Shown: positions 1 to 6,502 of the stretch, one piece after another | Position numbering within the stretch: the first letter of the stretch is position 1 | Layout: every line of letters begins with the position of its first letter | IMG/VR virus record: IMGVR_UViG_2778261247_000010 | Length of the DNA: 6,502 nt | From: a virus | Lineage: Duplodnaviria; Heunggongvirae; Uroviricota; Caudoviricetes | Direction: 5' to 3' (one strand) | Notes under the pieces: generated by a model | Told to the model about the DNA's origin: nothing | What the model saw: the letters and a program-made list of their open reading frames with translations, nothing else | Databases searched by the model: none | Translations under genes and position numbers: made by a program

Positions 1-2142
1 GAAGGCTCCAGACCAGGTACGCTGAATGATTTTCTCGGTGCCATGACGGAAGATGATGTCATGCCGGAGGCATTGCGTCGTTTTGAGGCAATGGTGGAAG
101 AAGTGGCACGCAACGCCGAAGCCGCCTCTCAGAGCGCAGCGGCGGCAAAGAAATCCGAAACTGCAGCGGCATCATCAAAGAACGCGGCGAAAACCTCAGA
201 AACGAATGCAGCTAATAGTGCACAGGCGGCAGCGACCTCAAAGACTGCATCGGCAAACTCCGCGACAGCAGCCAAAAAATCAGAAACCAACGCGAAAAAT
301 AGCGAGACAGCCGCAAAGACGAGCGAAACCAACGCAAAGTCCAGCCAGACGGCAGCGAAAACCAGCGAAACGAATGCCAAAGCCAGTGAAACTGCGGCAA
401 AAAACAGCCAGGTTGCAGCAGCCCAAAGCGAGAGCGCGGCAGCCGGTTCTGCGACTTCAGCAGCTGGATCAGCAACTGCTGCGGCTAACAGCCAGAAAGC
501 TGCGAAGACGAGTGAAACTAACGCAAAGTCCAGCCAGACGGCAGCGAAGACCAGCGAAACGAATGCCAAAGCCAGCGAAACTGCGGCGAAAAACAGCCAG
601 GTTGCAGCAGCCCAAAGCGAGAGCGCGGCAGCTGGTTCTGCAAGCGCGGCGGCTGCTTCTGCCACTGCATCAGCCAACAGTCAAAAAGCGGCAAAAACCA
701 GTGAAACCAATGCAAAGACAAGCGAGACTGCAGCGGCGAACTCGGCGAAAGCATCGGCAGCAAGCCAGACGGCTGCAAAAGCAAGTGAAGACGCAGCCAG
801 AGAGTATGCAAGCCAGGCTGCGGAGCCGTATAAACAAGTATTGCAGCCGCTTCCCGATGTGTGGATACCGTTTAACGATTCACTGGATATGATTACGGGC
901 TTTTCGCCGTCATATAAAAAGATTGTTATTGGTGATGATGAAATAACGATGCCTGGCGATAAGGTTGTAAAGTTTAAACGCGCATCAAAAGCAACTTACA
1001 TTAATAAATCTGGTGTGCTGACAGAGGCTGCCATTGACGAGCCACGATTTGAACGTGATGGCCTGCTTATTGAGGGGCAAAGAACAAACTACATGCTCAA
1101 TTCGGAAAACCCTGCCAGTTGGGGGCGATCGTCAAATATGGATGTTCCCGAAACCGGGAAGGATAGTTTTGGTTTTACCTATGGAAAGTTCGTCTGTAAC
1201 GATTCTCTGATTGGGCAAACCTCAGCCATTAATATGGCATCAATTGCTGCAACAAAGTCAGTTGATGTCTCAGGCTATAATAAATACGTGACAACCTCAT
1301 GTCGTTTTAAAACAGAACTGCAGGTAAGGTTGCGTATCCGGTTTGATAAATATGACGGTAGCGCAACAACTTTTCTTGGTGATGCGTATATTGATACACA
1401 AACGCTTGAAATTAATATGACAGGCGGTGCTGCCTCAAGGATTACAGCGAGAGTCAGAAAGGACGAAGCTACCGGATGGATTTTTGCAGAGGCAACAATT
1501 CAGGCAATTGATGGGGAGTTAAAAATAGGTTCTCAGATACAGTATTCTCCTAAGCAGGGCGGGGCAACCGTATCTGGTGACTATATTTATCTGGCCACCC
1601 CACAAGTAGAAAATGGGCCTTGTGTATCATCTTTTATTATATCAGGAACGACGGCGGCGACCCGCGCAAGCGATATAGTTACAGTTCCCATTAAGAATAA
1701 TCTTTATAATCTTCCTTTTACGGTTCTTTGTGAGGTACATAAGAACTGGTATAAAACGCCAAATGCAGCGCCGCGTGTTTTTGATACCGGCGGTCATCAA
1801 ACCGGAGCGGCTATTATTCTTGGGTTCGGATCTGCGGCAGATGGGCCAGACGGATTTCCTTATTGCGATATTGGAGGAGCTAACAGACGGGTAAACGAAA
1901 ACGCATCGCTTGAAAAAATGGTTATGGGGATGCGTGTAAAATCAGATCAGTCTACGTGCTCAGTAAGTAACGGGCGCATATCCAGCGAAAAAAAGACTAC
2001 GTGGTCCTATATTCAGAACTCTGCAACCATCCGTATTGGAGGCCAGACTACAGCAGGGTCACGTCATTTATTTGGTCATATCAGGAATTTCAGAATATGG
2101 CATAAGGCATTGACTGATGCTCAGGTGGGGGAGTCAATCTAA
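1..2142 (+). CDS. stf: Side tail fibre protein (Stf-like), 5'-partial: Ala/Ser/Thr-rich repeat shaft plus C-terminal LamG/ConA-like lectin-type domain
   Basis: Frame +1 has no stop from base 1 to the first ATG at 43, so the gene very probably starts upstream of the window (translation from base 1: EGSRPGTLNDFLGAMTEDD...). Nt ~43-830 encode a low-complexity A/S/T/K-rich shaft with reiterated KTSETNAK and AAKNSQ motifs typical of phage tail-fibre repeat regions. The C-terminus (...GSRHLFGHIRNFRIWHKALTDAQVGESI) has the characteristic ending of LamG/ConA-like lectin domains (inference). Stop TAA at 2140-2142. Confidence 0.88.
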   Translation, partial: EGSRPGTLNDFLGAMTEDDVMPEALRRFEAMVEEVARNAEAASQSAAAAKKSETAAASSKNAAKTSETNAANSAQAAATSKTASANSATAAKKSETNAKNSETAAKTSETNAKSSQTAAKTSETNAKASETAAKNSQVAAAQSESAAAGSATSAAGSATAAANSQKAAKTSETNAKSSQTAAKTSETNAKASETAAKNSQVAAAQSESAAAGSASAAAASATASANSQKAAKTSETNAKTSETAAANSAKASAASQTAAKASEDAAREYASQAAEPYKQVLQPLPDVWIPFNDSLDMITGFSPSYKKIVIGDDEITMPGDKVVKFKRASKATYINKSGVLTEAAIDEPRFERDGLLIEGQRTNYMLNSENPASWGRSSNMDVPETGKDSFGFTYGKFVCNDSLIGQTSAINMASIAATKSVDVSGYNKYVTTSCRFKTELQVRLRIRFDKYDGSATTFLGDAYIDTQTLEINMTGGAASRITARVRKDEATGWIFAEATIQAIDGELKIGSQIQYSPKQGGATVSGDYIYLATPQVENGPCVSSFIISGTTAATRASDIVTVPIKNNLYNLPFTVLCEVHKNWYKTPNAAPRVFDTGGHQTGAAIILGFGSAADGPDGFPYCDIGGANRRVNENASLEKMVMGMRVKSDQSTCSVSNGRISSEKKTTWSYIQNSATIRIGGQTTAGSRHLFGHIRNFRIWHKALTDAQVGESI
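313..641 (+). repeat. Intragenic in-frame tandem duplication (two ~140-bp copies, period 189 bp) inside the tail-fibre shaft
   Basis: Copy 1 ~313-452 and copy 2 ~502-641 differ at about 7 positions by eye, all at synonymous third-codon positions (agc/agt, acc/act, aaa/aag, gca/gcg, gcc/gct). Both encode the identical 48-aa block AAKTSETNAKSSQTAAKTSETNAKASETAAKNSQVAAAQSESAAAGSA. Confidence 0.9.
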
Positions 2143-2423
2143 TGAAAGATTTAACACTCAAATTTGCAGACAGGGCCGACTTTTCGGCCTTTATGGAGAG
2201 CACTGGCTATTATGATGACGAGTCGATGCAGGATAATATTCTTATTGACGTGATAGGTAACGTGTACAAAGAAACCGGAGAACTGACTGAAGATGGCGAA
2301 CCGGTATGTGTTAAGGAAGACGGATATTTTGTAAACGTGCGCATCATTAATGATGCAAAAAAATCGTCAATATTCGATAAATACGAGGTTGTTGTTGAGC
2401 ATCAACTTCGTGGCTGGATGTGA
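2142..2423 (+). CDS. Hypothetical small acidic protein (93 aa), translationally coupled to the tail-fibre gene; possible fibre accessory or assembly factor
   Basis: ATG at 2142 shares one base with the upstream TAA (cTAATG). SD GGGGGAG at 2127-2133 with 8-nt spacer. Product is D/E-rich with no hydrophobic segment. No family recognised from sequence alone. Stop TGA at 2421-2423 lies 9 bp before the next gene. Confidence 0.7.
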   Translation: MKDLTLKFADRADFSAFMESTGYYDDESMQDNILIDVIGNVYKETGELTEDGEPVCVKEDGYFVNVRIINDAKKSSIFDKYEVVVEHQLRGWM

Positions 2424-2432
2424 GGGAGACAA

Positions 2433-3473
2433 ATGGCTACATCGACAGTAATTCCTGATGACATCAAAACGCTAAAATCCGACGTTAGCAAATTAAAAAA
2501 CGATCAAGGAAGCTACGCAACAAAATCATATGTAGACAGCAAAGATGAAACCGTTGGTGACTGGTCTGCTTCATGGTATCAGCAGGTATTGCCAACTAGC
2601 GGAGCTATATTTGGGAGAAAACTCCGCTCAACTCACAGGACGGCAGGTGTTGAGGATGCGTATTGCGAACTATATCTCAAAAAATGGATAGACAGTCCAG
2701 GTAACGCAATGGCGCGCCTTAACCTGAACGATAACGGGAAAAACATTTGCTGGGACTTTACCAACCTTTATGGCGGTACGATGATTTTTCCCGGTGACAG
2801 CGGATACCTCAAAATGGGTAACTGCCTTATGTCATACAGCAAACGTGGAAGTAACGCGCTTATTAAATTTGATTACACCGACACATTACAGATCAAATAT
2901 GCTAATCATGGGTCAACCATGACATTAACCACACAGGGATCCGCTCACGCTGGCGTAACAACTAGACTATGGGGTAATTCTAGCCGTCCGGTTGTTTATG
3001 AAGTTGGCGTAGATGAGGCTCTGTATATGTTCTACGCACAGAAAACTACCAGCAATACCTACGAATTAACGGTTAACGGCGCGTGCAATGCAAGTGCATT
3101 TAATCAAGGCTCTGACCGGGATCTGAAAGACAATATTCAGGTGATCGATAATGCAACCGACCGCATTCGTAAAATGAACGGCTATACATACACGCTTAAA
3201 GAAAACGGTATGCCTTACGCTGGTGTTATTGCACAAGAAACCCTGGAAGCCATCCCCGAAGCCGTAGGGTCTATGATGAAATATCCAGACGGCGGGAGTG
3301 GATTAGATGGAGAAGAAGGTGAACGGTATTACACAGTAGATTATTCTGGTGTTACTGGCTTGCTTGTTCAGGTAGCCAGAGAGTCGGACGACAGAATAAC
3401 AGCACTGGAAGAAGAAAACGCAGAATTAAGACAAAGATTATCTGCAATTGAGGCGGCGCTTGCGTCTAAATAA
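2433..3473 (+). CDS. Tail fibre/tailspike-like protein with C-terminal self-cleaving intramolecular chaperone domain (peptidase S74-like)
   Basis: SD GAGGGAG at 2422-2428, ATG at 2433. From Ser227 (nt 3111) the sequence G-S-D-R-D-L-K-D-N-I-Q-V-I-D-N-A-T-D-R-I-R-K-M-N-G-Y-T-Y-T-L-K...AGVIAQE...PEAV shows the Ser/Lys dyad spaced five residues apart (S227, K232) and downstream motifs typical of the S74 chaperone domain of endosialidases and L-shaped tail fibres. Ends in a coiled-coil-like segment ITALEEENAELRQRLSAIEAALASK. The N-terminal ~226 aa would be the mature fibre part. Confidence 0.75.
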   Translation: MATSTVIPDDIKTLKSDVSKLKNDQGSYATKSYVDSKDETVGDWSASWYQQVLPTSGAIFGRKLRSTHRTAGVEDAYCELYLKKWIDSPGNAMARLNLNDNGKNICWDFTNLYGGTMIFPGDSGYLKMGNCLMSYSKRGSNALIKFDYTDTLQIKYANHGSTMTLTTQGSAHAGVTTRLWGNSSRPVVYEVGVDEALYMFYAQKTTSNTYELTVNGACNASAFNQGSDRDLKDNIQVIDNATDRIRKMNGYTYTLKENGMPYAGVIAQETLEAIPEAVGSMMKYPDGGSGLDGEEGERYYTVDYSGVTGLLVQVARESDDRITALEEENAELRQRLSAIEAALASK

Positions 3474-3478
3474 TATTA

Positions 3479-3502
3479 AGGGGCCGAGCGCCCCGTTTTA
3501 TT
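3479..3502 (+). terminator. Rho-independent terminator after the fibre operon
   Basis: GC hairpin GGGGC-cgagc-GCCCC (3480-3494) followed by GTTTTATT, immediately after the TAA stop at 3471-3473. Confidence 0.6.
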
Positions 3503-3515
3503 GGGTAGGATGAAA

Positions 3516-3803
3516 ATGGATATAACACCTTTCCTTCATGCACTTTGTGCTGTGGCTGCGCAGCTACTGATTGGTCTTTTTACCGGGAACTGGGCTTACG
3601 GGGCGATAGCCGGTTGTACGTTCTTCATTGCGCGTGAACACACCCAGGCAGAATATCGCTGGATTGAAATGTTCGGGCATGGCAAGCGTATGAATATGCC
3701 GTGGTGGGGCGGTTTTGATCTACGCGCGTGGGATGTAGCAAGCCTGATGGATTTTGCTGTGCCGGTGGTGGCGTGTTTACTTGTATTTATATTTTTTGAA
3801 TAA
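3516..3803 (+). CDS. Small integral membrane protein (~95 aa, three predicted hydrophobic helices); moron-type accessory gene candidate
   Basis: The ORF track begins at TTG 3501 (MGRMKMDIT...). ATG at 3516 preceded by AGGA (3507-3510, 5-nt spacer) is the better supported start; ATG 3510 is also possible. Hydrophobic segments FLHALCAVAAQLLIGLF, AYGAIAGCTFFIA and LMDFAVPVVACLLVFIFF. No family recognised. Stop TAA at 3801-3803. The gene is bracketed by hairpin terminators on both sides. Confidence 0.65.
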   Translation: MDITPFLHALCAVAAQLLIGLFTGNWAYGAIAGCTFFIAREHTQAEYRWIEMFGHGKRMNMPWWGGFDLRAWDVASLMDFAVPVVACLLVFIFFE

Positions 3804-3808
3804 AATTA

Positions 3809-3835
3809 AGACCCCATCTATAACTGATGGGGTCT
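3809..3835. terminator. Bidirectional intrinsic terminator between convergent genes (membrane-protein ORF and sopB)
   Basis: Perfect 10-bp stem AGACCCCATC (3809-3818) / GATGGGGTCT (3826-3835) with 7-nt loop TATAACT. T-rich runs follow on both strands (ATTCTATTTTCT on +; TAATTTTATT on -). Sits between the + strand stop at 3803 and the - strand sopB stop at 3852-3854. Confidence 0.8.
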
Positions 3836-3851: not shown

Positions 3852-4841
3852 TTAGTTATTTTTTACATCGGAAGAATTTCCAAACGCCTCCTCAAGAATA
3901 GATTCAATTTTACTCATTAGGTGCGATGGTATTTTTCTGTTATCTAATTTTAATGTTGTGAAATTTTTCCCATATTTCGCCACAACACCGTCTCCATATT
4001 TCTTTTCCCTTTTCTCTCCATGTGAATTGTTTTTCTCAACAATAATGAAATCATGAAGAGCCTGTATTATTCTTTGCGCATCTAAACTTTCACCTGATTT
4101 TTTCATCCTCAGCAACTGAGATGCAGCATTTTTCATGGCTGCTTCCTGTCCCTGATATGCTTTAAAAAGAGCGTCTCCTGCTCTGGCTGATAACTCACCA
4201 GGATGGTTAAATATTGCCAATATATCTTTAGGTAAACCGGCTGTATTAATACATCGGCTGATAATATTTCTATCCACGCCTTCGGCTTCAGCTAAAGATT
4301 TTACGTTACCGTCAAATTCATGGAGCCTTCGCAGGTATCTTTTCCCCCTTTCATAGGCGCTGATAGGTCTATAGTCGTTGCCTATCTGCGATAACCATTG
4401 CATTTGTTCATCATCTAAATCGCCAATAAGAACACGATAATCGCATCCAGTTATAATGGCTGCTTTACGTCTTCGAGAACCATCAGCTACTTCAACAATA
4501 CCTGACACTTTTCTTGCGAAAGCCGGATTTTGTTGCCCAGAAGTTAGAAAAGATGGAATTAAATCAGCTAGAGAAGATTCATTTAATAAATCTTGATCAC
4601 GCTCATTACCTAGCCATACCATTGTTGCCATTTCTACTTTATCTGCGGGGATCGTCTCTAACTTAAAGTTAACATTACGTCCGCATACTGGCAAAGTTAT
4701 GCTATTACCGGTTAATGAACTCAGTTGACGTTTTAAATCACCAACCATAGGTGATACCGGCTGATGTTCAGGTGCATGATGATTATTACTCATAATGCGA
4801 TTAATATCCGGAGCATTTTTTAGAAGAGAGCGTTGTTTCAT
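3852..4841 (-). CDS. sopB: Plasmid partition protein SopB (ParB family, F-type centromere-binding protein)
   Basis: 329 aa. By-eye similarity to F-plasmid SopB over conserved blocks (GNERDQ.LL.E..L.DLIPSFL.TGQQ.PAF.R.VSG..E.ADGSRRRKAA; GNDYRP.SAYERG.RY; RCINTA.LPK...A.F.HPGELSAR.GDAL.KA). SD GGGAG 8 nt upstream of the start. ATG at 4839-4841 overlaps the sopA stop (ATGA, 4838-4841), implying translational coupling. Confidence 0.95.
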   Translation of the reverse strand: MKQRSLLKNAPDINRIMSNNHHAPEHQPVSPMVGDLKRQLSSLTGNSITLPVCGRNVNFKLETIPADKVEMATMVWLGNERDQDLLNESSLADLIPSFLTSGQQNPAFARKVSGIVEVADGSRRRKAAIITGCDYRVLIGDLDDEQMQWLSQIGNDYRPISAYERGKRYLRRLHEFDGNVKSLAEAEGVDRNIISRCINTAGLPKDILAIFNHPGELSARAGDALFKAYQGQEAAMKNAASQLLRMKKSGESLDAQRIIQALHDFIIVEKNNSHGEKREKKYGDGVVAKYGKNFTTLKLDNRKIPSHLMSKIESILEEAFGNSSDVKNN

Positions 4842-6007
4842 TCTTCGTTCTCCCAGCGAGGTTTTATTAGATCATCAAAAATTTCTCGACAAACAGGGTC
4901 CCATATAGAGACGGCATTTCTCCATGCATTAAGTGTTGAACGCTGGTTTGCCGCTTGTTCAAATACTGTTCGCATTTTTATCTGACCTTTACCTACTTCA
5001 TCGGTAACGCGTACAACCTGACGTAATACCATTGATCCCCATGTATTTCTTATTTGCTCTTCCATCCATCGTGATTGATTTCCTGTAGTGAGACTATATT
5101 TAGTCAGAAGCAAGCGAACGGTCGGCTCAAATCCGCCTAGGTCAACGCTTTCTAGGAGATCGAGAAGCATTGTGAAAAACTGTAGAACAGAGGCGTAATC
5201 AAATAATTCTGCAGGGGTAGCAACAACGATAACGTCAGCTGCGCAAACAACGTTAATGGTTCCTGTACCGAGGTTTGGAGCACTATCTATAACGATAACA
5301 TCGTAGTTATCCCAAACTGATTCTATAGCTGCGCGTAGCATCAGGTGAGGAGGGTGAGGCAATTTACCCTGAGCATGATATTGCATGAGATCTGTTTCTA
5401 TACGGTGTAAAGCTAGGCAGCTAGGAATAATGTCCAGTCCAGGCCAGCATGTTGGTTTTATAGCATATTCAGCGTTATCGCGTTCGCCCAAGTAAAATGG
5501 CAGTAAAGTATCCTCGGCATGTATATGTAAATCAGGTACATAACCGTGATACATGGAGGCTGTTCCCTGAGGATCGTTACCTTCAACTAAAAGAACACGA
5601 TGACCTTGTAATGCTAGCCATTGTGCCTGATGTACTGCAGACGATGTTTTATAAACTCCGCCTTTGTGTGACATAACAGCAAGCACAACTGGGTTTTTAT
5701 CTTGTGGCCGTTGGTTTGGGTTGCCAAAAACAGCTCGCATACTATTGATTTGATCTATGGTATAACCGGCACGACGTTCAACTCTTCCTCTCATTTCAAA
5801 GTCAGGTGCAGGTAAACGCCCGTTCTTCTCAGCATCTCTTATTGCTTGAGGAGTTACACCAATTAAATCTGCTACTTCAGTTATCCCCCATCTACGCGTG
5901 ATACGCCGAGCTTCAGGACTATCATCACCGAATTGAGCTATAGCAATTGCTTGGGTCATTTCTTGACCGCGCGTAACACAATCTTGTAATAACTTTTTCA
6001 AAGACAT
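4838..6007 (-). CDS. sopA: Plasmid partition ATPase SopA (type Ia ParA with N-terminal HTH autoregulatory extension)
   Basis: 389 aa. Deviant Walker A KGGVYKTS, A' region VLLVEGNDPQGTASMYHG, Walker B DVIVIDSAPNLG. N-terminal region ...AIAIAQFGDDSPEARRITRRWGITEVADLIGVTPQAIRDAEKNGRLP... is near-colinear with F SopA as recalled. SD GGAG (minus strand, + coordinates 6016-6019) 8 nt before the ATG at 6007. Confidence 0.96.
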   Translation of the reverse strand: MSLKKLLQDCVTRGQEMTQAIAIAQFGDDSPEARRITRRWGITEVADLIGVTPQAIRDAEKNGRLPAPDFEMRGRVERRAGYTIDQINSMRAVFGNPNQRPQDKNPVVLAVMSHKGGVYKTSSAVHQAQWLALQGHRVLLVEGNDPQGTASMYHGYVPDLHIHAEDTLLPFYLGERDNAEYAIKPTCWPGLDIIPSCLALHRIETDLMQYHAQGKLPHPPHLMLRAAIESVWDNYDVIVIDSAPNLGTGTINVVCAADVIVVATPAELFDYASVLQFFTMLLDLLESVDLGGFEPTVRLLLTKYSLTTGNQSRWMEEQIRNTWGSMVLRQVVRVTDEVGKGQIKMRTVFEQAANQRSTLNAWRNAVSIWDPVCREIFDDLIKPRWENEE

Positions 6008-6028
6008 ACTGTCATCTCCAGCTTATAA

Positions 6029-6106
6029 CTTTGCTTAATAATTATTGCTTTGCATATTTCTAGCAAATTGACATAGAAAAAGCAAAGTAAAACAAAAAAG
6101 GCAAAG
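6029..6106 (-). promoter_or_regulatory. sopAB promoter/operator: four CTTTGC hexamers (SopA autoregulatory motif) in dyad arrangement
   Basis: CTTTGC on + at 6029-6034 and 6048-6053; CTTTGC on - (GCAAAG on +) at 6082-6087 and 6101-6106. Spacing is 19 bp within each pair and the whole set is exactly symmetric about 6067/6068. Candidate sigma70 hexamers on the minus strand lie among them (TTGCTA at 6061-6066 as -35; an A/T hexamer around 6038-6043 as -10); exact hexamers uncertain. In F, SopA represses sopAB through repeated CTTTGC motifs overlapping the promoter (established knowledge). Confidence 0.55.
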
Positions 6107-6294
6107 ACGAAGATTTGAACAAAATCATCTTTTGTTTTATCCCTTAAATGCAAAAAAAAACAACGACAAGATCATAACAAATTGATAATAAAGGATTTTT
6201 TAAAAGAAAGGAAATCGTATAAAACTAGTGAAACATGATGAAAATCATCAATGAGATACGTTTCCTCTATTTATTCTCCTAATCCTCACCAACA

Positions 6295-6437
6295 AAAGAA
6301 CACAATCAAAGATCGTAAAACAACAATAATAATTCACACAAAATAAAGAACACAAATACAGAAAACAACAACACAATAAAAACAAGAGAACACAAGCTAT
6401 AAATATTACACCAATAGAGAACACTAATCAAGAACAT
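6295..6437 (+). repeat. Array of phased GAACAC(A) direct repeats in an A+C-rich tract flanking the telomere-resolution palindrome (candidate protelomerase or accessory binding sites)
   Basis: GAACACAA at 6298-6305, 6348-6355 and 6388-6395; GAACAC at 6419-6424; GAACAT at 6432-6437, the last inside the palindrome arm. Start-to-start spacing is 50, 40, 31 and 13 bp. The + strand of ~6288-6426 is roughly 80% A+C by eye. Confidence 0.7.
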
Positions 6438-6502
6438 ATCAGCACATAATTTCCCATTATACGCGCGTATAATGGGAAATTATGTGCTGATATGTTCTTG
6501 AT
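6427..6502. other. Telomere resolution site (tos/telRL-like protelomerase target): perfect 76-bp palindrome
   Basis: Arms 6427-6464 (ATCAAGAACATATCAGCACATAATTTCCCATTATACGC) and 6465-6502 are exact reverse complements, centred on ACGCGCGT. The core TATCAGCACAtAATTtCCCATTATACGCGCGTATAATGG closely matches the N15 telRL as I recall it, with the central telO-like segment identical. The palindrome reaches the last base of the window. Confidence 0.8.

Follow-up and report, generated by a model that had tools for sequence, protein, structure and literature searches.

The distal tail fibre protein pb1 of phage T5 is cut between Thr1263 and Ser1264, with Lys1269 as the partner of the serine; its receptor is bound only by the cleaved form, receptor binding being unmasked only after the cut before this serine (PMC4690869). 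The S74 domains that have been characterised work in cis, on beta-structure that directly precedes them (PMC4690869). In the T5-like phages DT57C and DT571/2, LtfA and LtfB, the proteins of a branched lateral fibre, each recognise an O-antigen type (PMC4728585; PMC10713586). The lateral fibre locus of IrisVonRoten (Bas32, Tequintavirus) consists of the proximal protein Gp22, of Gp23, and of a 'T-shaped' distal protein with an intramolecular chaperone (IMC), Gp24 (Humolli et al. 2025, PMC11990801). An AlphaFold-Multimer model has Gp24 attached to Gp22, a protein with a 'galectin-like' end, and these lateral fibres act on the O16 O-antigen (PMC11990801).

Here we analyse a window of 6,502 nucleotides, which originates from an N15-like linear plasmid-prophage and contains a fibre operon with the following main features:

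1–2142, plus strand: stf, the side tail fibre gene, truncated at its 5' end by the window edge (frame open from base 1)
2142–2423, plus strand: gene of an acidic 93-aa protein, pI 4.3 (phrog_1361, gene context)
2424–2429, plus strand: ribosome-binding site GGGAGA of the S74 gene (direct sequence reading)
2433–3473, plus strand: gene of a tail-fibre protein of 346 aa that ends in an S74 intramolecular chaperone (ORF, Pfam, PHROG)
3480–3501, plus strand: GC-rich, intrinsic-terminator-like hairpin GGGGCCGAGCGCCCC with a T-run, directly after the stop of the S74 gene (terminator scan, direct reading)

The 93-aa gene is translationally coupled to stf via a TAATG overlap and this coupling, together with the ribosome-binding site and the terminator, indicates that the three genes form one transcription unit; the operon ends at the hairpin and T-run. 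The reading frame of the S74 gene is intact, and in the translated window its start and stop match those of the initial annotation exactly. The 93-aa gene and the S74 gene are separated by a recombination joint, and the region as a whole is a mosaic. An Rfam scan matched nothing in the window.

The S74 domain makes up the last 120 aa of the 346-aa protein, and its parts are located as follows:

3111–3470, plus strand: intramolecular chaperone, residues 227–346, 13.2 kDa (Pfam, alignment, AlphaFold2, family profile)
3111–3266, plus strand: Pfam S74 core (Pfam)
3111–3113, plus strand: codon of Ser227 (translation)
3126–3128, plus strand: codon of Lys232 (translation)
3342–3467, plus strand: C-terminal helix (AlphaFold2)

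A profile search with the 346-aa protein returned Pfam PF13884 Peptidase_S74 at E=8.7e-14 and 52 bits (gathering cut-off 22 bits), with model positions 1-57/58 corresponding to residues 227-278, and because this alignment sets in at residue 227 the domain starts exactly at Ser227. The S74 signature that the initial annotation had read from the motif GSDRDLKDNIQ (residues 226-236) is thus borne out by the profile. The Ser227/Lys232 dyad named there is likewise present, and both residues are invariant in an alignment of 60 sequences which are 36-92% identical to the query; their spacing of five residues equals that of Ser1264 and Lys1269 in T5 (PMC4690869). The C-terminal coiled coil of that annotation finds its counterpart in a helix over residues 304-345 of the AlphaFold2 model (block pLDDT 72-94), in a region where the family profile also matches PDB entries of coiled coils, both trimeric and dimeric. 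Among solved structures, the best sequence match of the IMC is the IMC of S16 gp37 (PDB 6f45, E=1.4e-9, family profile). The evidence supports a bona fide S74 intramolecular-chaperone domain, complete with the Ser/Lys dyad and followed by a helix at the C-terminus, and, to judge from the sequence, this folding domain probably cuts itself off. The predicted cut is placed before Ser227 because of the T5 pb1 precedent (PMC4690869), and would yield products of 24.9 kDa (residues 1-226) and 13.2 kDa (residues 227-346). In S74 domains an arginine contributed by a neighbouring subunit serves as folding sensor or oxyanion-hole partner. R185 and E190, upstream of the predicted site, are invariant in the 60-sequence alignment, the AlphaFold2 monomer being poor for a comparison of these residues with Arg1250 and Asp1239 of T5.

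The predicted mature part is less uniform:

2433–3110, plus strand: predicted mature protein, residues 1–226, 24.9 kDa (secondary structure, entropy profile, profile matches)

It comprises a coil (about residues 9-30), a hypervariable stretch (about 31-105) and a fibre-end domain (about 116-226), with beta-strands predicted across residues 37-214. The entropy profile places most of the variation within residues 31-105 and 196-225, a pattern that supports a receptor-binding part, for which it would be expected. PHROG 4563 is matched over the full length of the protein, and in the PHROG tail-fibre families residues 92-342 align to the extreme C-termini of fibres of 1,200-1,570 aa. Further matches were obtained with the C-terminal region of T4 gp34 (E=8.5e-9, family profile against the PDB), with P2 gpH (30.8% identity, residues 110-233) and with the C-termini of T5-like fibres (28-49% identity to residues ~150-346). 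These alignments support homology of the pre-cleavage part to the long-fibre ends of T5-like, rV5-like, T4-like and P2-like phages, and they support a protein of the tail-fibre type. The likeness to T5-like fibres extends over the last ~75 mature residues and the IMC; the 'bullet' domain of T5 pb1 (pb1 970-1263) was recovered neither by phmmer or the PDB profile search nor by Foldseek, the latter with a low-confidence monomer model. No catalytic glycosidase or lyase domain was indicated upstream of the IMC: Pfam had no match for residues 1-226 even with E values of up to 10 allowed, and NCBIfam gave nothing relevant for the protein in full length. The AlphaFold2 monomer of the 346-aa protein (60-sequence alignment) reached a mean pLDDT of 63.8 and a pTM of 0.35, and Foldseek found no match for it in the PDB with E<=0.001, so that the fold of residues 31-226 is not established. 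The monomer is unusable for assigning a tip fold, and a poor model is what would be expected of an interdigitated trimer.

The upstream fibre contains several elements that bear on the role of the S74 protein:

301–735, plus strand: 189-nt tandem repeat, 2.3 copies, encoding the Stf shaft, which is rich in Ala/Ser/Thr/Lys (Tandem Repeats Finder, 85% matches, score 632)
805–2139, plus strand: C-terminal globular region of Stf (Stf-C), ~445 aa (tblastn, 14-phage alignment, PDB 6tb9)
1066–1668, plus strand: GTA head-spike-fibre-like domain of Stf, ORF residues 342–542 (NCBIfam NF048003)
1975–2127, plus strand: LamG/ConA-like C-terminal motif of Stf, below threshold (PF13385 Laminin_G_3)

The window stf has 94.8% nucleotide identity to the stf of the lambda-like phage 2G7b, its product matches PF08400 phage_tail_N and phrog_1419, and Stf is most likely the proximal subunit of a composite fibre. 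Stf-C was found by tblastn in 225 phage records and is conserved wherever the three-gene module described below occurs. In an alignment of 14 phages its ends are near-invariant, over ~85 aa at the start (QPLPDVWIPFNDSL...EPRFE..GLLIEGQRTN) and over the final ~30 aa (RHLFGHxRNxRIWHKxLTD). Stf-C matches the RcGTA head spike fibre in PDB 6tb9 (E=5.8e-7), and the NCBIfam model NF048003 GTA_spike_fiber exceeds its cut-off of 36 bits (E=1.2e-13, 52 bits), whereas PF13385 Laminin_G_3 stays below its own (E=2.7e-4, 21.5 bits against 27.6). Of the LamG-like tip proposed in the initial annotation, the lectin-like globular end can thus be retained, while the LamG assignment proper is plausible but weakly supported. 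An AlphaFold2 model of the C-terminal 445 aa had a mean pLDDT of 46.7 with a shallow alignment (the 120 homologues listed were all at least 72% identical), and the GTA-spike-like domain is its only moderately confident part. Foldseek matches of this model were weak (best E=2e-3) and comprised phage baseplate and fibre chains, CBMs and legume lectins, which is suggestive of a lectin-like beta-sandwich. The authors of the IrisVonRoten study considered that the lectin-like end of the homologue may be an extra binding domain (PMC11990801).

The 93-aa protein had no match in Pfam or NCBIfam, and a single-sequence search of the PDB gave nothing meaningful. Its homologues occur in 181 phage records, always directly 3' of a Stf-type fibre, and the gene is kept in phage 21, ev243 and FFH2, all of which are devoid of the S74 gene. 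From this gene context it is presumed to be a conserved partner of Stf-C, either an assembly factor or a connector.

The three genes form a portable module of constant order, in which a side fibre with a GTA-head-spike-fibre/LamG-like end is followed by a gene of 92-93 aa and then by the S74 protein. Its hosts include lambda-like, N15-like, Drexlerviridae (T1-like), Dhillonvirus, Queuovirinae (9g-like) and T5-like phages as well as other E. coli prophages. Common to their third proteins is the N-terminus:

2433–2483, plus strand: N-terminal 17-aa motif MATSTVIPDDIKTLKSD, proposed docking peptide (conservation across loci)

All module phages keep M-x-T-x-T-V-I-P-x-D-I-x-x-L-K in this protein. 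Among the IMG/VR loci with enough flank, the gene 3' of the 93-aa gene opens with M[AV]xxTxIPxDI in every case (77 of 77), and the motif also occurs in JenP1, tunus, KarlBarth, VogelGryff, IrisVonRoten and two metagenomic Drexlerviridae-like contigs. In the loci sampled it is always directly preceded by the Stf-C domain and then the 93-aa gene, and it is common to phages with unrelated tails and fibre N-termini (at least four siphovirus families, and prophages with other tail types). When different phage types are compared with 2G7b as reference, identity amounts to 20-35% in the N-terminal 150 aa of Stf (the tail anchor), 55-93% in its C-terminal 445 aa, 39-91% in the 93-aa protein, 47-100% in the first 17 aa of the third protein and 5-92% in the remainder of its mature part. 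This pattern points to a docking partner inside the module and not to the phage-specific tail.

Behind the same motif, allelic cassettes with mature parts of 115, 119, 226, 263 and 463 aa are found, each followed by an S74 domain. Moreover, the Stf-C of PhiR46_1 is only 45% identical to that of 2G7b, whereas the third genes are ~90% identical; since the alleles of Stf-C and of the third gene are shuffled in this way, any interface between them must reside in small invariant stretches. Phage 21 and ev243 possess Stf and the 93-aa gene and have no third gene, hence Stf is presumably complete without the third protein; this fits an optional add-on and equally allows other roles. The 14-phage alignment revealed no Stf feature specific to phages with the third gene and did not pinpoint a socket; phage 21 and ev243 likewise have the invariant QPLPDVWIPFNDSL segment and, at the C-terminus, the RHLFGH..RIWHK motif.

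The S74 gene itself is common and already annotated, its S74 domain being detectable by routine Pfam scans. It is present in 772 of 5,426 complete E. coli genomes (about one in seven), with copies covering at least 80% of the gene in 517 of them, and in plaque-forming isolates, e.g. ESCO3, 2G7b, Tritos, HannyBb and JenP1; some prophages carry truncated copies of 90, 194 and 227 aa. Identical RefSeq copies are named "tail fiber domain-containing protein", while homologues bear the names 'endosialidase chaperone' (ESCO3, OM386652) and 'putative lateral tail fiber chaperone' (VogelGryff, MZ501110), and the JenP1 homologue has an 'endosialidase'-related annotation. In the literature on the closest phages (the ECOR-derived PhiR phages) we found nothing specific to the S74 gene, and the Nature 2024 paper on lambda-STF engineering did not use this fibre module.

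The conservation of the motif across unrelated tails, always together with Stf-C and the 93-aa gene, indicates that the protein most likely plugs onto Stf. We consider it reasonably probable, on these comparative grounds, that the side tail fibre consists of two parts, is possibly branched, and has the 346-aa protein as its distal, receptor-binding and exchangeable subunit. The domains, the dyad, the order of the genes and the pattern of conservation and variation are observed here; how the protein trimerises, is cleaved and docks, what it binds and what the 93-aa protein does are inferred, as follows. The S74 chaperone (residues 227-346), with its mixed alpha/beta part and trimeric coiled coil, would set three chains in register and template the interdigitated beta-structure of residues ~116-226. 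Once a correct trimer has formed, Ser227, activated by Lys232, would cut the Gly226-Ser227 bond and the 13-kDa chaperone would depart. The mature 25-kDa trimer could then dock distally on the Stf trimer, the C-terminus of which bears a lectin-like GTA-spike-fibre/LamG domain, through the conserved N-terminal peptide MATSTVIPDDIKTLK and the short coil after it, and the 93-aa protein, translationally coupled with Stf, may help to assemble the Stf end or the joint. The tip, possibly together with the lectin domain of Stf, would recognise a variable glycan of the cell surface, for example O-antigen, in a reversible primary adsorption, and a J-type central fibre would subsequently engage the terminal receptor. 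A broader generalisation, to which we give slightly less than an even chance, is that the 17-residue motif is a universal 'plug' by which IMC-bearing tips (mature parts of ~115 to ~460 aa) fit onto a conserved fibre-end socket of the GTA-head-spike-fibre/LamG type, possibly with participation of the 93-aa protein, and that at least six coliphage lineages have this arrangement in common with the N15-like phage-plasmids. No experimental characterisation of such a plug/socket interface or of the 93-aa protein was found in the literature.

An independent second receptor-binding protein, that is a short fibre or spike on the tail tip which would provide the phage with two adsorption organelles and dual receptors, seems unlikely to us. 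The S74 gene is separate and has its own ribosome-binding site, its product varies like a receptor-binding protein, Stf has a lectin-like end of its own, and the dispensability of the third gene in phage 21 and ev243 means that Stf and the S74 protein are not obligatorily one unit. However, the protein has no recognisable anchor domain, since only the 17 conserved residues and a coil of ~20 aa precede its variable part, and the N-terminal motif stays the same despite unrelated tail tips, with Stf-C and the 93-aa gene directly upstream throughout the sample. For the same reasons, the 'two receptor-binding modules' of the initial annotation are not supported in the sense of two independent organelles, and the dual receptor use and expanded host range derived from them are speculation.

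That the whole 346-aa protein is a trans-acting assembly chaperone of Stf and no virion component is very unlikely. Residues 92-226 have their homologues among the structural ends of fibres, the characterised S74 domains work in cis on upstream beta-structure (PMC4690869), hypervariable allelic cassettes would not be expected if the protein chaperoned Stf-C, which is much better conserved, and Stf occurs without the S74 protein in phage 21 and ev243; these points outweigh the chaperone-type names in OM386652 and MZ501110, the Pfam family title 'Chaperone of endosialidase' and the position of the S74 gene in place of lambda tfa. If a dedicated Stf assembly factor exists, the 93-aa protein, being conserved, is a better candidate for it. 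Alternatively, the gene could be a fragment that recombination split off from a longer fibre gene and that is now decaying, perhaps expressed but functionless in the phage-plasmid, as the mosaic region with its recombination joint and the truncated prophage copies might suggest; the intact reading frame with ribosome-binding site and terminator, the copies of at least 80% coverage in 517 complete E. coli genomes, the presence of the gene in plaque-forming ESCO3, 2G7b, Tritos, HannyBb and JenP1 and the invariant catalytic residues render this highly improbable. Finally, a tailspike-like depolymerase (an endosialidase-type enzyme) degrading capsule or O-antigen, called to mind by the definition of the S74 family on endosialidase tailspikes and by the 'endosialidase'-related annotation of the ESCO3 and JenP1 homologues, is barely credible for a mature part of only 226 aa that lacks a catalytic-domain match in Pfam and NCBIfam at permissive thresholds and whose homologies point to non-enzymatic fibre ends, and it is rejected along with the trans-chaperone and pseudogene readings.

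The practical value of the composite-fibre reading is modest: the last gene of a portable fibre cassette, which occurs in temperate phages (lambda-like), in phage-plasmids (N15-like) and in virulent phages (T1-, 9g- and T5-like), would behave like a plug-in receptor-binding tip. If the plug reading is true, host range could be reprogrammed by swapping one small gene, and the Stf lectin domain and the tip would constitute a two-ligand adhesin on one fibre. A confirmed docking peptide would offer a simple handle to engineer or predict host range and would correct the database names "chaperones" and "endosialidases" for these proteins.

Compared with known systems, the window protein shares with the endosialidase tailspikes of K1F and K1E, founding members of S74 in MEROPS and Pfam, the C-terminal chaperone domain with its Ser/Lys dyad (for self-cleavage see PMC4690869), but it has no sialidase beta-propeller or beta-helix and its mature part is far shorter; by its sequence it would be a fibre tip, not an enzyme. 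Similarly, the gp37 IMC of T2 and S16 (PDB 6f45) resembles it in the chaperone domain, including the motif SSDRRIKKDI, but belongs to the long tail fibre of a myovirus with a separate gp38 adhesin, and only the chaperone domain is in common. As in the Stf/Tfa system of lambda, the window stf lies downstream of J and lom and has the PF08400 N-terminal anchor; unlike lambda Stf, however, it ends in a lectin-like region and not in a T4 gp37-like tip, and the 93-aa and S74 genes are added. There is no Tfa-type gene directly 3' of stf, and the window has no match to the Tfa family; 2G7b keeps only tfa fragments, further downstream.

T5 pb1 (2015, PMC4690869) shares the S74 IMC, the Ser-x4-Lys arrangement at the domain boundary, the coiled-coil core and a chaperone of ~120-133 aa, but is a single chain of 1,396 aa with its own N-terminal tail anchor, whereas the tip in the window is a separate product of 346 aa. 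In DT57C and DT571/2, the second fibre protein bears an IMC (pfam13884) and is present on the virion only via the first one (Golomidova et al. 2016, PMC4728585; Ayala et al. 2023, PMC10713586), as the window protein would be if it attaches to Stf. In DT57C, however, both proteins carry IMCs and LtfA has no GTA-spike/LamG end; the parallel appears to be an analogy of architecture only.

Another close counterpart is the lateral fibre locus of IrisVonRoten, which has the same order of three genes, a Gp22 whose C-terminal domain is 63% identical to the Stf-C of the window, a Gp23 (bas32_0023) that is 37% identical to the 93-aa protein, and a Gp24 that begins with MVTKTVIPTDITKLK and ends in an S74 domain. 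The two loci differ in the phage, IrisVonRoten being T5-like and virulent and its fibre having another anchor, and in the distal protein: Gp24 is 574 aa long and has two receptor-binding domains, one Gp12-like and one T5-like, while the window protein of 346 aa has a different and shorter mature part. Apart from the N-terminal motif and the IMC, there is practically no relationship between these two proteins, with 27% identity over the IMC only. Of an IrisVonRoten-type module, the window contains the lectin-like fibre end, the gene of ~92 aa and the distal protein that combines the N-terminal motif with an IMC.

The S74 gene and its flanking signals lie in the window as follows.

2424-2429: GGGAGA, ribosome-binding site of the S74 gene (sequence reading)
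2433-3473, + strand: open reading frame of 346 aa, the S74 gene (ORF reading)
3111-3113: Ser227 codon of the S74 gene
3126-3128: Lys232 codon of the S74 gene
3480-3494: GC-rich hairpin with a T-run, seven bases past the S74 stop (terminator scan)

Residues 227-278 of the 346-aa protein match Pfam Peptidase_S74 (PF13884) over model positions 1-57/58 (E=8.7e-14; 52 bits, gathering cut-off 22). As the match begins at residue 227, the S74 domain starts exactly at the proposed nucleophile, within the motif GSDRDLKDNIQ (residues 226-236). Both Ser227 and Lys232 are invariant in an alignment of 60 sequences that share 36-92% identity with the query. Residues 304-345 are predicted to form a long helix, the most confident part of the AlphaFold2 model, and here the family profile matches known coiled coils. 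The initial annotation, which had described an S74 signature with a Ser227/Lys232 dyad and a C-terminal coiled coil, was correct for this ORF in every checkable detail. In T5 pb1 the homologous bond, between Thr1263 and Ser1264, is cut, the serine being activated by Lys1269 (PMC4690869); on this precedent, cleavage would yield a mature protein of 24.9 kDa (residues 1-226) and a chaperone of 13.2 kDa (227-346).

The protein is already catalogued, and both it and its family are annotated and abundant. PHROG 4563 'tail fiber protein' matches it end to end (E=4.7e-212), and the nearest 90%-identity cluster, 'tail fiber domain-containing protein', holds 2,132 sequences. Of 5,426 complete E. coli genomes, 772 carry the S74 gene (517 of them over >=80% of its length), and 46-kb plasmids carry 100% identical copies, all with the same PGAP annotation. 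In public annotations the start codon of homologues is often misplaced (examples are P0015, P0017, P0023 and P0025): P0023, called at 384 aa, has a true ORF of 401 aa that starts with the conserved N-terminal motif (L095 3950-5155), and 254-aa 'proteins' start at an internal Met93.

The S74 gene invariably comes third in a triad, after a fibre gene (here the side tail fibre, Stf) and a gene for a ~92-aa acidic protein (93 aa here) that matches no Pfam or NCBIfam family; in the window this second gene and the stf stop codon overlap (TAATG). Carriers of the triad include temperate phages of the lambda-like and N15-like kinds, Drexlerviridae (tunus and two metagenomic contigs), Queuovirinae (ESCO3, JenP1, VogelGryff), T5-like IrisVonRoten, E. 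coli prophages whose fibre has a further type of N-terminus, and Dhillonvirus KarlBarth, where the motif-bearing third gene is split in two and devoid of an S74 domain. KarlBarth (L010 4270-5149) encodes a 98-aa motif protein followed by a 196-aa protein with PF25670 Phage_tail_C_2, which indicates that the proposed N-terminal plug can bear tips folding without an intramolecular chaperone (IMC).

The last ~445 aa of Stf form a conserved globular region, which matches NCBIfam GTA_spike_fiber above the cut-off (E=1.2e-13) and the head spike fibre of the Rhodobacter GTA (PDB 6tb9; E=5.8e-7) and, at its extreme end, Laminin_G_3 below threshold; the AlphaFold2 model of this region was poor and gave only weak, lectin- and CBM-like matches. 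The KTSETNAK-type shaft is encoded by a tandem repeat (301-735; 189-nt unit, 2.3 copies, 85% matches, nested 21/42-nt periodicity), which probably gives rise to differences in fibre length. The 93-aa protein has homologues in 181 phage records, in each case immediately 3' of such a fibre. Phage 21 (L012 1944-4585) and ev243 (L014 1935-4582) carry the first two genes of the triad and no third, while in rV5-like FFH2 (L013 562-5333) these two are followed by unrelated genes; all three fibres share the GTA-spike/LamG end and a 92-110-aa partner gene. The S74 protein is thus an optional add-on, and the 93-aa protein, because it is kept where the third gene is missing, probably has its role at the fibre end, either in assembly or as a structural cap.

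In every case compared, the third protein starts with the same motif.

Window: MATSTVIPDDIKTLK
IrisVonRoten: MVTKTVIPTDITKLK
tunus: MATVTVIPSDITKLK
VogelGryff: MAKTITNIPKDITNLK
Metagenomic contig L005: MARVTNIPGDITTLK

Among 80 IMG/VR loci retrieved using the 93-aa protein, the motif opens the gene after the 93-aa gene in all 77 with enough downstream sequence. Motif-bearing cassettes measure 234, 245, 346, 384 and 574 aa, each with a terminal S74 domain; the mature parts are between ~115 and ~463 aa long.

Identity to the lambda-like phage 2G7b of module parts in loci from different phage types
Fibre, N-terminal 150 aa (tail anchor): 20-35%
Fibre, C-terminal domain: 55-93%
93-aa protein: 39-91%
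Third protein, N-terminal 17 residues: 47-100%
Third protein, rest of mature part: 5-92%

The peptide stays constant while the tails differ and was never seen apart from the conserved fibre end; docking onto that end accounts best for this pattern, although a socket on Stf was not located in an alignment of fibre C-terminal regions. The initial annotation had proposed a self-cleaving, receptor-binding-type S74 protein as a binding module separate from Stf. This reading is supported in part. The fibre protein with its S74 chaperone, predicted to cleave itself, stands; in place of a second, independent organelle, the evidence favours a single composite side fibre whose distal subunit plugs in. 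Two binding modules may well be present at the locus, one at the lectin-like end of Stf and the other in the S74 tip; any consequences for host range are conjecture. That the 17-residue plug and the 93-aa protein define a universal, engineerable docking system for fibre tips across many coliphage lineages is an idea that we would stop just short of calling probable.

Alleles are reshuffled between fibre end and third gene: relative to 2G7b, the fibre end of PhiR46_1 is 45% identical and its tip ~90%. A second common third-gene allele, of 234 aa, occurs in L015 (from 5292) and ~45 other IMG/VR loci, and its tunus version has 245 aa (L009 4292-5029). Both carry the N-terminal motif and S74, with a mature part of only ~115-119 aa, mostly coiled coil, and would represent a strikingly small fibre tip. 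In the window, the 93-aa gene shares 99% identity with copies that accompany the 234-aa allele and only 89-91% with those that accompany the 346-aa allele, yet it is the 346-aa allele that follows it, which places a recombination joint in 2142-2433 (compared with loci L015-L094).

Close homologues of the 346-aa protein vary mostly at residues 31-105 and 196-225 through block replacement of variable segments, and are most conserved in the S74 core; their N-terminal coil varies by whole 14-21-aa repeats. Such block-replacement mosaicism is typical of receptor-binding proteins. The extreme C-termini of PHROG tail-fibre families of 1,200-1,570 aa align with residues 92-342, and tblastn matched residues ~150-346 at fibre ends of T5-like, rV5-like and 9g-like phages and residues 110-233 in P2 gpH. 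The family profile matched T4 gp34 in its C-terminal region (E=8.5e-9) and S16 gp37 in its IMC (PDB 6f45; E=1.4e-9). Pfam and NCBIfam profile searches detected no catalytic domain; the AlphaFold2 monomer (pLDDT 63.8) was too poor to assign a fold, and Foldseek found no significant match with it.

The remainder of the window points to the source element.

3852-4841, - strand: SopB-type ParB gene (PF18090 SoPB_HTH)
4838-6007, - strand: SopA-type ParA gene
6427-6502 (last 76 bases): perfect palindrome, 38-nt arms, no spacer

The window shares 98.5% identity with E. coli plasmid CP088430 and 97% with the end of the PhiR46_1 genome (an Escherichia phage), where a telR site is annotated. The partition genes overlap by 4 nt, like those of N15-like phage-plasmids, and the palindrome, which includes the N15 telRL-like sequence TATCAGCACATAATTTCCCATTATACGCGCGTATAATGGG..., is a predicted hairpin telomere or telomere-resolution site. 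These identities, the sopA/sopB-type genes and the palindrome identify the element as an N15-like linear plasmid-prophage. The integrating lambda-like phages 2G7b, Tritos and HannyBb have a tail-fibre region ~95% identical to bases 1-3776, and virulent 9g-like ESCO3 is 96% identical to bases 840-3401, so that the fibre region is a horizontally mobile cassette. Between terminator-like hairpins (3480-3494 and 3809-3835) lies a gene (3501-3803, +; likely start 3510 or 3516) for a two-TM membrane protein of ~97 aa (phrog_1443, labelled 'unknown function'), a moron-like accessory gene that may be exclusion-related; it also follows the fibre genes of phage 21 and ev243 despite their lack of an S74 gene. 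Between sopA and the telomere, 6008-6426 is non-coding (29% GC); it holds a direct repeat of 50 nt (6280-6379) and several occurrences of a GAACACAA motif, which may be TelN or partition-related binding sites.

The architecture has already been described for a homologous module. Humolli et al. modelled the IMC-bearing distal fibre Gp24 of IrisVonRoten as attached to the proximal Gp22, whose protruding 'galectin-like' end might be an additional binding domain (PMC11990801); both are homologous to the window proteins, and the modelled attachment agrees with the docking proposed here. A precedent for a tip held only through the first fibre protein is DT57C LtfA/LtfB, in which genetic evidence supports attachment of the second, IMC-bearing fibre protein solely via the first (PMC4728585, PMC10713586).
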